A DNA stretch of 64,000 nt from Escherichia coli (GCF_965641715.1 NZ_OZ282453.1); one strand, 5' to 3'. Counted from the first letter of the stretch, positions 52,899-61,677 are shown. Program-made: numbers and translations. Notes: generated by a model not told the origin, from the sequence alone.

Positions 52899-53227
52899 CT
52901 ATTTGTTAGTGAATAAAAGGTTGCCTGTAAAATTACAAAAACCTTACGCAGCGTCAAGCGGAATCGTGTCAATCATTGCGACAAATCAATCCTGTGCCTA
53001 AGCATTACGCGACTGACTCGCCTCACTCTTCCTTTGGGCTTGAGACCACATGGGGTCGGCGCCCCGAATTTTAAAGGGCAATTACGATAAAAATGTGATT
53101 TTCATCACGATTTAGGTGCAGCCATTTCGTCGAGATCAAGTTTAGGACAAAATTTTGCCAGTTGGTGTTAATGTTTTGTTAGAATCAGTCACGTAATGTG
53201 AGCACGATTAAAGTGAGATGTGAGCAA

Positions 53228-54193: not shown

Positions 54194-54249
54194 CTGCGTA
54201 ATTGTGATCTGAGTTGTAAAACGCAGATCATTATCTGTGTTTTACAGAT
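54194..54249. promoter_or_regulatory. Candidate operator array upstream of ydjL (repeated ATCTG/CAGAT inverted repeats)
   Basis: CTGCGT(54194)/ACGCAG(54221), TGATCTG(54204)/CAGATCA(54224), ATCTGT(54233)/ACAGAT(54244), 75-130 bp upstream of the ydjL start. Confidence 0.35.
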
Positions 54250-54324
54250 TTAATGTTGACCTCAAAAATCATGTGGGTAAGTATGATGACCATCTAAGCA
54301 AAACAAAACACAGAGGATGACGCA

Positions 54325-55401
54325 ATGAAAGCACTGGCTCGGTTTGGCAAAGCCTTTGGCGGCTACAAGATGATCGATGTGCCACAACCCATTTGTGGCC
54401 CGGAAGATGTAGTGATTGAAATTAAAGCCGCGGCAATCTGCGGCGCAGACATGAAGCACTACAATGTCGATAGCGGTTCTGATGAGTTTAACTCTATCCG
54501 CGGCCATGAGTTCGCAGGTTGTATTGCGCAGGTTGGTGAAAAAGTCAAAGACTGGAAAGTGGGGCAACGCGTCGTGTCGGATAACAGCGGTCACGTCTGC
54601 GGTGTTTGTCCGGCCTGTGAACAAGGTGATTTTCTGTGTTGTACAGAAAAAGTAAACCTTGGTCTGGATAACAATACCTGGGGCGGTGGTTTTTCCAAAT
54701 ATTGTCTGGTTCCTGGTGAAATTCTCAAAATTCATCGTCATGCGTTGTGGGAAATCCCTGATGGTGTTGATTATGAGGACGCAGCCGTACTTGACCCTAT
54801 CTGTAATGCCTACAAATCCATCGCGCAGCAATCGAAATTCCTTCCTGGTCAGGATGTGGTCGTCATCGGCACTGGCCCACTCGGGCTGTTCTCCGTACAA
54901 ATGGCGCGGATTATGGGGGCGGTAAATATCGTTGTCGTTGGTCTGCAAGAAGATGTGGCGGTCCGCTTCCCGGTTGCAAAAGAACTGGGTGCGACGGCAG
55001 TAGTAAATGGTTCTACCGAAGATGTGGTGGCGCGCTGCCAGCAAATTTGTGGCAAAGACAATCTGGGACTGGTGATTGAATGCTCCGGTGCCAATATCGC
55101 ACTTAAACAAGCCATCGAAATGCTCCGCCCAAACGGGGAAGTGGTACGCGTTGGAATGGGCTTCAAACCTCTTGATTTCTCGATTAATGACATTACCGCC
55201 TGGAACAAAAGCATCATTGGGCATATGGCCTATGACTCAACCTCATGGCGTAACGCTATCAGGCTATTAGCCAGCGGCGCTATCAAAGTCAAACCGATGA
55301 TCACGCATCGTATCGGCCTGTCGCAATGGCGCGAAGGGTTTGATGCGATGGTCGATAAAACCGCAATCAAAGTGATCATGACTTACGACTTTGATGAATA
55401 A
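54325..55401 (+). CDS. ydjL: Zn-dependent medium-chain alcohol/polyol dehydrogenase YdjL
   Basis: 358-aa MDR-family ORF with catalytic and structural zinc Cys ligands (GHE...CGVCPACEQGDFLCC). Confidence 0.85.
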   Translation: MKALARFGKAFGGYKMIDVPQPICGPEDVVIEIKAAAICGADMKHYNVDSGSDEFNSIRGHEFAGCIAQVGEKVKDWKVGQRVVSDNSGHVCGVCPACEQGDFLCCTEKVNLGLDNNTWGGGFSKYCLVPGEILKIHRHALWEIPDGVDYEDAAVLDPICNAYKSIAQQSKFLPGQDVVVIGTGPLGLFSVQMARIMGAVNIVVVGLQEDVAVRFPVAKELGATAVVNGSTEDVVARCQQICGKDNLGLVIECSGANIALKQAIEMLRPNGEVVRVGMGFKPLDFSINDITAWNKSIIGHMAYDSTSWRNAIRLLASGAIKVKPMITHRIGLSQWREGFDAMVDKTAIKVIMTYDFDE

Positions 55402-59684: not shown

Positions 59685-60665
59685 ATGAAAAAGATACCTT
59701 TAGGCACAACGGATATAACGCTTTCGCGAATGGGTTTGGGGACATGGGCCATTGGCGGCGGTCCTGCATGGAATGGCGATCTCGATCGGCAAATATGTAT
59801 TGATACGATTCTTGAAGCCCATCGTTGCGGCATTAATCTGATTGATACTGCGCCAGGATATAACTTTGGCAATAGTGAAGTTATCGTCGGTCAGGCGTTA
59901 AAAAAACTGCCCCGTGAACAGGTTGTAGTAGAAACCAAATGCGGCATTGTCTGGGAACGAAAAGGGAGTTTATTCAACAAAGTTGGCGATCGGCAGTTGT
60001 ATAAAAACCTTTCCCCGGAATCTATCCGCGAAGAGGTAGAAGCCAGCTTGCAACGTCTGGGTATTGATTACATCGATATCTACATGACGCACTGGCAGTC
60101 GGTGCCGCCATTTTATACGCCGATCGCTGAAACTGTCGCAGTGCTTAATGAGTTAAAGGCTGAAGGGAAAATTCGCGCTATAGGCGCTGCTAACGTCGAT
60201 GCTGACCATATCCGCGAGTATCTGCAATATGGTGAACTGGATATTATTCAGGCGAAATACAGTATCCTCGACCGGGCAATGGAAAACGAACTGCTGCCGC
60301 TATGTCGTGATAATGGCATTGTGGTTCAGGTTTATTCCCCGCTAGAGCAGGGATTGTTGACCGGCACCATCACTCGTGATTACGTTCCGGGCGGCGCTCG
60401 GGCAAATAAAGTCTGGTTCCAGCGTGAAAACATGCTGAAAGTGATTGATATGCTTGAACAGTGGCAGCCACTTTGTGCTCGTTATCAGTGCACAATTCCC
60501 ACTCTGGCACTGGCGTGGATATTAAAACAGAGTGATTTAATCTCCATTCTTAGTGGGGCTACTGCACCGGAACAGGTACGCGAAAATGTCGCGGCACTGA
60601 ATATCAACTTATCGGATGCAGACGCAACATTGATGAGGGAAATGGCAGAGGCCCTGGAGCGTTAA
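59685..60665 (+). CDS. ydjG: Aldo-keto reductase YdjG
   Basis: 326-aa AKR-family ORF. Confidence 0.85.
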   Translation: MKKIPLGTTDITLSRMGLGTWAIGGGPAWNGDLDRQICIDTILEAHRCGINLIDTAPGYNFGNSEVIVGQALKKLPREQVVVETKCGIVWERKGSLFNKVGDRQLYKNLSPESIREEVEASLQRLGIDYIDIYMTHWQSVPPFYTPIAETVAVLNELKAEGKIRAIGAANVDADHIREYLQYGELDIIQAKYSILDRAMENELLPLCRDNGIVVQVYSPLEQGLLTGTITRDYVPGGARANKVWFQRENMLKVIDMLEQWQPLCARYQCTIPTLALAWILKQSDLISILSGATAPEQVRENVAALNINLSDADATLMREMAEALER

Positions 60666-60687
60666 ATACTCAACACGATTCACCTCT

Positions 60688-60722
60688 GTTTCTGTGAAAA
60701 CTGTGATGAAAATCTGTGATTC
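60688..60722. promoter_or_regulatory. Three direct CTGTGA repeats upstream of ydjF (candidate DeoR/CRP-type operator)
   Basis: CTGTGA at 60692, 60701 and 60714 in the ydjG-ydjF intergenic region, 80-110 bp upstream of the ydjF GTG start. Confidence 0.3.
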
Positions 60723-60801
60723 AAACAGGTTATTTTGAAAGTAAACATCGGTTATGCGATAATCGTGCTAATGTGATGTAAAAAGATACAGGGGTGTAAT
60801 C

Positions 60802-61560
60802 GTGGCGGCAAAAGACAGGATTCAGGCAATTAAGCAAATGGTTGCCAACGATAAAAAGGTGACAGTCTCAAATTTGAGTGGGATTTTTCAGGTAACCGAA
60901 GAAACCATTCGCCGCGATCTTGAGAAGCTGGAAGATGAAGGCTTTTTGACCAGAACTTATGGTGGTGCTGTTTTAAATACAGCGATGTTGACGGAGAATA
61001 TTCATTTTTATAAGCGCGCTTCATCGTTTTATGAAGAGAAGCAGCTTATTGCACGCAAGGCACTACCCTTTATCGACAATAAAACCACCATGGCAGCCGA
61101 TTCCAGTAGTACCGTAATGGAATTGCTCAAATTGTTACAGGACCGTAGTGACCTGACGTTGCTAACCAACTCGGCGGAAGCGATTCATGTTCTGGCTCAG
61201 TCAGAAATTAAAGTCGTTTCAACGGGTGGGGAACTAAACAAAAATACACTTTCACTGCAAGGAAGAATTACTAAAGAGATCATCAGCCGCTATCATGTCG
61301 ATATCATGGTAATGAGTTGTAAAGGTCTTGATATTAACAGCGGCGCGCTGGACTCTAATGAAGCGGAAGCTGAAATCAAAAAGACAATGATCCGTCAGGC
61401 GACAGAAGTTGCGTTATTGGTTGATCACTCTAAGTTTGATCGCAAAGCTTTTGTCCAGTTAGCTGACTTTAGTCATATTAATTACATAATAACTGATAAA
61501 TCACCGGGTGCAGAGTGGATAGCATTTTGCAAAGACAATAATATCCAGCTGGTGTGGTAA
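60802..61560 (+). CDS. ydjF: DeoR-family transcriptional regulator YdjF (GTG start)
   Basis: 252-aa ORF with N-terminal DeoR HTH and C-terminal sugar-phosphate-binding domain. Confidence 0.85.
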   Translation: MAAKDRIQAIKQMVANDKKVTVSNLSGIFQVTEETIRRDLEKLEDEGFLTRTYGGAVLNTAMLTENIHFYKRASSFYEEKQLIARKALPFIDNKTTMAADSSSTVMELLKLLQDRSDLTLLTNSAEAIHVLAQSEIKVVSTGGELNKNTLSLQGRITKEIISRYHVDIMVMSCKGLDINSGALDSNEAEAEIKKTMIRQATEVALLVDHSKFDRKAFVQLADFSHINYIITDKSPGAEWIAFCKDNNIQLVW

Positions 61561-61677
61561 TTTAAGCACACGTTGTCAATATTATTTGTTCCTGCGCCTG
61601 GAAATAAAATGATGATAAAGATGCGGCAAGTGAATTTGCCGCAATTGCTACCTTTTTTAGCAAATCCGAGGCACCCA

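Follow-up and report, generated by a model that had tools for sequence, protein, structure and literature searches.

Operators of DeoR-family regulators are known from the tandem GlpR operators of the glp regulon, from the AgaR sites of the aga cluster, and from the O1, O2, and OE operators of DeoR. CRP recognizes a two-fold symmetric site of 16 to 22 bp, TGTGA-N6-TCACA, and acts from centers near -61.5, -71.5, -82.5, or -92.5 at class I promoters and from -41.5 at class II promoters; at lac P1, the CRP site is centered at -61.5. At the level of the mRNA, the infC-rpmI-rplT operon provides an example in which a ribosome-binding site is sequestered by long-range mRNA pairing. The spacer between ydjG and ydjF of Escherichia coli, which we analyze here, shows likenesses to all of these systems and differs from each of them in particular respects.

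The window analyzed is a stretch of 64,000 nucleotides of E. coli DNA (GCF_965641715.1 NZ_OZ282453.1), and all coordinates count from its first letter, on the strand shown; they are converted to those of MG1655 (U00096.3) as 1915656 minus the window coordinate. RefSeq annotation of identical E. coli DNA places the ydj cluster on the plus strand in the order ydjL-K-J-I-H-G, followed by ydjF, of the DeoR/GlpR family, and ydjE. ydjG (59685 to 60665, stop codon at 60663 to 60665) is the last gene of ydjLKJIHG, and ydjF (60802 to 61560, with a GTG start codon at 60802 to 60804) encodes a protein of 252 amino acids with an N-terminal DeoR-type helix-turn-helix (Pfam HTH_DeoR, E = 2.9e-17) and a C-terminal sensor domain (DeoRC, E = 2.4e-49). 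The two genes are separated by 136 bp, as they are in MG1655, the spacer of which differs from that of the window by one substitution and no indels, and a scan of the spacer found no terminator-like site 3' of ydjG. Further downstream, the ydjF-ydjE spacer contains a hairpin, GCGGCAA-N6-TTGCCGC (61623 to 61642), with a run of T residues some bases later, which might act ahead of ydjE as an attenuator or a weak terminator. Two of the cluster enzymes are placed by EcoCyc-derived annotation in the catabolism of L-glycero-L-galacto-octuluronate. YdjF is listed as an uncharacterized transcription factor (PMC4797297), and we found no study of YdjF binding in the literature that mentions ydjF.

The cluster is not universal in the species. 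The ydjG-ydjF region (60300 to 61200 of the window) occurs in 4,329 of 5,426 complete E. coli genomes and is absent from about one-fifth of strains; strain A30 is 100% identical to the 901-bp query taken from it, and one copy of the region is plasmid borne. YdjL (ydjL, 54325 to 55401) is at least 80% identical to proteins labelled Mediterraneibacter/Ruminococcus, Brachyspira, Coriobacterium, and Vallitaleaceae, and 70 to 74% identical to those of lactobacilli and Actinomyces. These YdjL identities suggest a recent horizontal spread of ydj genes among gut bacteria.

A consensus scan identified a single sigma-70-like site in the spacer, TTGAAA-17-GATAAT, which matches the consensus at 10 of 12 positions and has the TG of an extended -10 element. 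The -35 hexamer TTGAAA occupies 60735 to 60740 and the extended -10 element TGcGATAAT occupies 60755 to 60763, with its hexamer GATAAT (60758 to 60763) 17 nt from the -35; the start of transcription predicted from the -10 is either of two adjacent A residues, 60770 or 60771 (1854886 or 1854885 in MG1655 U00096.3). A search of Cappable-seq and dRNA-seq tables, which may be incomplete, gave no mapped 5' end for ydjF. The same TTGAAA-17-GATAAT sequence, located between ydjG and ydjF, has been catalogued for ydjF by genomic SELEX as a promoter bound by RpoD holoenzyme alone (PMC3946193). About 20 orthologous spacers from enterobacteria preserve the -35, the extended -10, and the distance of 17 nt between the hexamers, and in them the promoter takes the form TTGAAA-17-GATACT with TG (TGaGATACT). 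An internal ydjF promoter, here called PydjF, had been anticipated by the original prediction, and the scan match, the conservation across genera, and the RpoD-holoenzyme SELEX listing all bear it out. Outside Escherichia, an additional CTGTGA overlaps the extended -10 (CCTGTGAGATACT) at the place that corresponds to 60758 to 60763, and Escherichia, which has lost this overlapping CTGTGA, has TTATGCGATAAT and with it a better -10. A fourth TGTGA lies at 60772 to 60776 (+2 to +7 from the predicted start); it is found in E. coli and Escherichia whittamii, and the third Escherichia sequence has CGTGA there. The consensus site of CpxR is GTAAA-N5-GTAAA. Between the -35 and -10 of PydjF, GTAAA is present at 60741 to 60745 and is followed 5 nt later by GTTAT. 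In a table of the CpxR regulon, ydjF is listed alone, with a 1.9-fold change (PMC2731931). That ydjF changed on its own in this transcriptome study fits a separate transcription unit.

Upstream of this promoter, inside 60688 to 60722, a triple CTGTGA direct repeat with spacings of 9 and 13 bp had been predicted, and both direct reading and a pattern search confirmed it. Copy 1 lies at 60692 to 60697 (-78 to -73 from the predicted start), copy 2 at 60701 to 60706 (-69 to -64), and copy 3 at 60714 to 60719 (-56 to -51), and together they span -78 to -51 of PydjF. CTGTGA as such is not enriched in the 64-kb window (17 matches, against 26 expected). Close clusters are another matter: a non-simple hexamer occurs three times within 30 bp at three loci in the 64 kb, against 0.46 per dinucleotide-shuffled window, and this test of cluster rarity, which was made after the fact, gives an expectation of about 0.001 per 136-bp spacer. 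The exact 52-mer from 60682 to 60733 is present in 3,924 of the 4,311 complete E. coli genomes that have the region (91%), and the sampled variants hit 60724 and 60729 to 60731 and not the three copies, with a single exception. This is E. coli LZYWN_4 (NZ_CP046416.1, 2142583 to 2142826), in which a natural 12-bp deletion has removed copy 2. In that strain, the boxes to either side of copy 2 come to lie about one helical turn nearer each other.

The origin and the neighborhood of the three copies were read from orthologous spacers. A scan of representative genomes gave 22 enterobacterial loci with ydjG and ydjF in the same arrangement, from Escherichia, Citrobacter, Klebsiella, Raoultella, Budvicia, Yokenella, Intestinirhabdus, Symbiopectobacterium, and Serratia, and their spacers were read and aligned. 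Copy 3 (AAATCTGTGATTCAgACA) is kept in 20 of the 22. Its CTGTG stands 21 bp upstream of the -35 in those 20 orthologues, and in 18 of them a second CTGTG follows 20 to 22 bp further upstream; overall, this distal CTGTG is kept in 19 of the 22 ydjF spacers. The place of copy 1, which is the E. coli form of the distal box, is CTGTGT in nearly all orthologues, including the other two Escherichia sequences, and belongs to a block that hardly varies, ACCTCTGTTTCTGTGTAAAA; the distal box reads CTGTGTAAAA in most of the other genera. In the E. coli sequence, the conserved block (ACCTCTGTTTCTGTGAAAAC, 60682 to 60701) has two parts, the 5' part being an anti-Shine-Dalgarno arm, discussed below, and the 3' part the distal CTGTG box. 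Copy 2, by contrast with copies 1 and 3, falls in the least conserved stretch of the spacer, the variable DNA between the two conserved boxes, and is CTATGA in E. whittamii.

Comparison with equal-length orthologues shows that copies 1 and 2 came about by single-base substitutions, TGTGT to TGTGA and CTATGA to CTGTGA, respectively. As judged from the alignment, the triple therefore exists in E. coli only, where two point substitutions created it. A tandem repeat made by duplication or slippage was considered and rejected, because the spacing is unequal (9 and 13 bp) and the equal-length orthologues differ by point changes. ArcA (TGTTA), PhoP (TGTTTA), and CpxR (GTAAA) were also considered as binders of direct repeats and set aside; judged by eye, the TGTGA boxes mismatch key bases of each. 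The three copies are three different things and not one repeat element.

The upstream region of ydjL, the first gene of the cluster, was compared in two Citrobacter assemblies, in one other contig, and in metagenome DNA by means of a pattern scan seeded on the ydjL 5' coding sequence. This yielded 43 more distinct upstream sequences, which together with the earlier contigs fall into four lineages. A search for additional ydjL promoters through YdjL protein clusters gave, in four look-ups, gene contexts unlike the ydj cluster. Nearly all of the sequences have three direct TGTG boxes, ATTTGTGATCT, GTTGTGAAAT, and AATCTGTGTTT, the second placed 12 bp downstream of the first and the third 21 bp downstream of the second, and a conserved TTGAC comes after them. 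In the window, this promoter region extends from 54203 to 54261, with the -35 hexamer TTGACC at 54256 to 54261. Box A (TGTGATC) begins at 54203, and box B (TTGTAAAA in E. coli and TTGTGAAA in most other lineages) begins at 54214; both are kept in nearly all sequences. Box C (TATCTGTGTTTT) begins at 54232, at a distance of 24 nt from the -35, and all four lineages have it.

The register of these boxes is the same at the two promoters. In PydjF as in PydjL, AATCTGTG begins 24 nt upstream of the -35, and each promoter has a distal TGTG box 21 to 22 bp upstream of it; at ydjF, AATCTGTGATT begins exactly 24 nt before TTGAAA. When the 24 nt beside the -35 are compared in this register between ydjF and ydjL across genera, 13 to 18 of 24 positions are identical, against 7.5 ± 2.2 in shuffles, and an identity of at least 16 of 24 is reached in 0.017% of shuffles, with the anchor having been chosen post hoc, after the match was seen. 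In an unanchored comparison of the E. coli ydjF and ydjL upstream regions, shared k-mers were not above shuffles, and the argument for a shared element is therefore based solely on the anchored comparison across genera. The corresponding 24-nt element of the ydjF spacer (AATCTGTGATTCAAACAGGTTATT, 60711 to 60734), which abuts the -35 and contains copy 3, is a candidate operator for YdjF.

Two further features of the ydjL region should be recorded. Boxes B and C of E. coli together make up a palindrome with 15-bp arms, TTGTAAAACGCAGAT-CATT-ATCTGTGTTTTACAG (54214 to 54247), just upstream of TTGACC, and our scan flagged it as terminator-like. We also considered a DNA inverted repeat flanking both promoters, with the upstream box as the reverse complement of the Shine-Dalgarno region. 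The only perfect match of this kind at ydjL is that of E. coli, and the other lineages show a degraded one; the idea was therefore dropped for ydjL and survives solely in the form of the RNA helix between ydjG and ydjF.

The original prediction had noted that TGTGA is also the CRP half-site, and a part of this idea finds support in published data. Shimada et al. 2011 report, in their Table S3, a SELEX-chip peak of cAMP-CRP at 'ydjF< <ydjG' with the box ACAGATTTTCATCACA, and the peaks of this in vitro study vanish without cAMP (PMC3105977). The reverse complement of the published box, TGTGATGAAAATCTGT, is the 16-bp sequence at 60702 to 60717, which comprises copy 2 and the start of copy 3. Its center, 60709.5, is at -60.5 or -61.5 from the predicted start. 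As in lac P1-type class I promoters, a TGTGA-containing 16-bp box at this distance thus lies upstream of a sigma-70 promoter, and cAMP-dependent CRP binding in vitro has been published for the spacer that contains it; the ydjF box differs from the lac type in its poor right half, in its rank in the lower quarter of SELEX boxes, and in its conservation only within E. coli. Its left half matches at 5 of 5 positions, and its right half, TCTGT, matches TCACA at 2 of 5. With a symmetrized position weight matrix built from the 149 other boxes of Table S3 (PMC3105977), it scores 8.2 bits, the 26th percentile of the 149 SELEX boxes, and 36 positions in the 64-kb window score as high or higher. The strongest CRP-like box of the window, TGTGATTTTCATCACG (53094 to 53109, 17.1 bits), is the known gapA/msrB site.

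The other TGTGA-anchored boxes score 2.6 bits (copy 1, from 60693), -1.8 bits (copy 3, from 60715), and 2.1 bits (the fourth TGTGA, from 60772). For copy 3 with a downstream partner, the partner half matches at 0 of 5 positions, and this combination was rejected as a CRP site. At the place of copy 2, the score is 8.2 bits in E. coli against 4.8 and 2.4 bits in the other two Escherichia sequences, the two substitutions that set E. coli apart having raised it, and a CRP-like site is absent from this place in the other 20 orthologous genomes. The half-site idea thus holds for the stretch formed by copy 2 and the start of copy 3, where the in vitro peak is recorded, with the qualification that the box is weak and is not retained in orthologous promoters. 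A search for CRP binding or CRP-dependent expression of ydjF in vivo gave no record; ydjF is missing from a list of 699 sigma-70 promoters that accompanies a Crp ChIP-exo study, which is uninformative and does not count as negative evidence. The comparison of orthologous intergenic regions gives a similarly divided answer, in that copy 3 and the distal box are conserved and copy 2 and the CRP box are confined to E. coli.

We consider it somewhat more probable than an even chance that the region is a composite, in which conserved boxes that would serve the local DeoR-family regulator, YdjF, are overlaid in E. coli by a weak and putatively activating class I CRP site. The three copies would belong to the control region of PydjF and make up its upstream portion, from -78 to -51; this promoter would transcribe ydjF independently of ydjLKJIHG. 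Copies 3 and 1 lie in the two conserved CTGTG boxes, 21 to 22 bp or about two helical turns apart, and these boxes are most economically read as the operator of YdjF, the cluster's own DeoR-family regulator, which may control both its own gene and the ydjL operon. Copy 2 is a point substitution of the E. coli lineage in the variable DNA between the boxes, which with the first bases of copy 3 makes a weak CRP box; from about -61, CRP may activate PydjF in E. coli by the class I route, overlapping the 5' edge of the proximal box. As a site for a DeoR-type regulator, which is how the direct repeats had originally been interpreted, the triple survives in two of its members: the comparative evidence suggests that copies 1 and 3 are in boxes that probably bind YdjF, while the triple as such is found only in E. 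coli and its copy 2 lies in the variable spacer.

The comparison with described DeoR-family systems is consistent with this composite reading in some respects and departs from it in others. As at the operators of GlpR, AgaR, and DeoR, a local regulator with HTH_DeoR and DeoRC domains is accompanied by repeated short boxes at the promoter of the operon and at its own promoter, and the local regulator may share its promoter with CRP, a situation also found in the deo and glp systems. What would be expected of autoregulation in this family is found, namely the same repeated box at both cluster promoters and the conservation of the boxes across genera. The ydj box, (A/T)TCTGTG(A/T)TT, is unlike the operators of GlpR, AgaR, and DeoR, and the candidate boxes lie upstream of the -35 and not over the -10 and -35. 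Simple repressors do not usually bind at such a position, clear of the core promoter, and an activator could occupy it as well. The ydjL promoter has been described as silent in vitro and in culture and as switched on in the mouse gut, in a cluster the regulation of which is described as largely uncharacterized; a promoter that is off in vitro and on in the gut fits a repressor-controlled cluster.

Among the alternatives, the one that holds up best dispenses with CRP. In this scheme, which we judge unlikely, all three repeats would be half-sites for YdjF, the third having been added in E. coli, and the CRP binding seen in vitro would be biologically irrelevant. The conserved direct CTGTG boxes at both cluster promoters speak for it, as does the ydjL promoter with its own set of three direct TGTG boxes, and numerous weak sites in SELEX lists have no proven function. 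AraC, MelR, GalS, FucR, and SrlR are sugar regulators that depend on CRP. In an expression-clustering study, YdjF fell outside the cluster that holds these regulators, a result that also favors a promoter governed by YdjF and not by CRP. A third YdjF half-site would nevertheless have to be accommodated at copy 2, in the part of the spacer that is least conserved, and its spacings of 9 and 13 bp do not agree with the 12 and 21 to 22 bp found elsewhere. Furthermore, both of the substitutions that distinguish E. coli act to raise the CRP score, and the E. coli box has 12 contiguous bases (GTGATGAAAATC) in common with the strong gapA CRP box.

It is distinctly improbable, in our estimation, that the triple has no function as such, copies 1 and 2 being neutral substitutions in A+T-rich promoter-upstream DNA that by chance repeat the hexamer of a conserved neighboring box. 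E. coli is only two single-base changes away from E. whittamii in this respect, the triple is found in E. coli alone, the hexamer is not enriched in the window, and one strain has lost copy 2 naturally in its 12-bp deletion. The persistence of the exact 52-mer in most genomes, with sampled variants outside the copies, argues against neutrality, although the low diversity of E. coli means that conservation within the species says little. The other objections are the rarity of triple-hexamer clusters in shuffled windows, the fact that both derived changes yield the same hexamer, and the binding of cAMP-CRP in vitro to the derived sequence.

At the opposite extreme, the triple might serve pure catabolite control, with all three TGTGA sequences acting as CRP half-sites and overlapping weak sites jointly recruiting cAMP-CRP, and with no role for YdjF. 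We give this little credence. TGTGA is the CRP half-site, there is a cAMP-dependent CRP peak in the spacer, and three weak overlapping sites could add up in SELEX enrichment; yet a CRP-like score is obtained for the copy-2 box alone, and the conserved copy 3 lacks any match in its partner half. The boxes are also retained in orthologues that have no CRP-like site there, and the boxes at ydjL score at most 1.7 bits as CRP sites, with no CRP peak listed at ydjL in Table S3 (PMC3105977).

The 5' part of the conserved block has a different candidate explanation, which concerns RNA. RNAalifold, applied to an alignment of 23 sequences, predicted a 12-bp helix of ACCTCTGTTTCT with GGAAACAGAGGT. Its 5' arm (60674 to 60693, beginning CACGATTCACCTCTGT) comes right after the ydjG stop codon and is present only in read-through ydjG-ydjF mRNA, and its 3' arm (60784 to 60804) covers the ydjF Shine-Dalgarno sequence AGGGGTG (60790 to 60796) and the GTG start codon. 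In the alignment, 97.8% of helix cells are paired, against 47 to 62% in slid controls; the two arms vary so little that there is next to no covariation. When the spacers were folded singly, 9 to 12 of the 12 bases of the Shine-Dalgarno region paired with the first 45 nt after the ydjG stop in 23 of 23 cases, and the E. coli read-through RNA folded at -42.2 kcal/mol (z-score, -4.1). The Shine-Dalgarno sequence is predicted to be unpaired with a probability of 0.00 in the read-through RNA and of 0.62 in the transcript from PydjF. On these folding predictions, the helix would mask translation of ydjF on operon read-through mRNA. The arrangement resembles the rpmI-rplT coupling of the infC-rpmI-rplT operon in its predicted pairing of post-stop sequence with a downstream Shine-Dalgarno sequence and start codon, and differs in that ydjF has its own promoter inside the loop, so that only the read-through mRNA would be masked.

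The helix explains the 5' part of conserved block 1 and not the CTGTGA copies. That pairing with the ydjF ribosome-binding site in read-through mRNA, and not DNA-binding proteins, accounts for the conservation is consequently the least probable of the readings considered: consistent pairing in every spacer, the z-score, and the masking of the Shine-Dalgarno sequence support the helix itself, whose pairing shows almost no covariation, but it reaches only the first two bases of copy 1 and leaves copies 2 and 3 and the box TGTG(T/A)AAAA outside, accounting for part of block 1 and not for the repeat.

Taken together with the composite reading preferred above, the helix raises a tentative idea, which we think rather doubtful in its full form. 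The spacer may be a two-level insulator for repressor synthesis, with the YdjF boxes (and, in E. coli, the CRP site) acting on the DNA and with masking of the ribosome-binding site and start codon acting on the read-through mRNA, and the TCTGTG boxes may define the YdjF operator and regulon. If this is true, the level of the repressor would rise upon induction of ydjLKJIHG only where the helix is opened by ribosomes that complete ydjG.

The CRP box and the ydjF promoter are already published in high-throughput lists and represent ordinary promoter wiring; the boxes shared within the ydj cluster and the anti-Shine-Dalgarno helix appear to be undescribed, yet they too are elements of ordinary kinds. 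The general picture of promoter function is unchanged by the ydjF control region. What the analysis offers is a concrete candidate operator, common to both cluster promoters and given with exact coordinates, which provides a handle for EMSA and ChIP and for an inducible gut biosensor. For E. coli, the gain of a CRP box in this species only would be a small, clean example of the lineage-specific rewiring of a local regulator.
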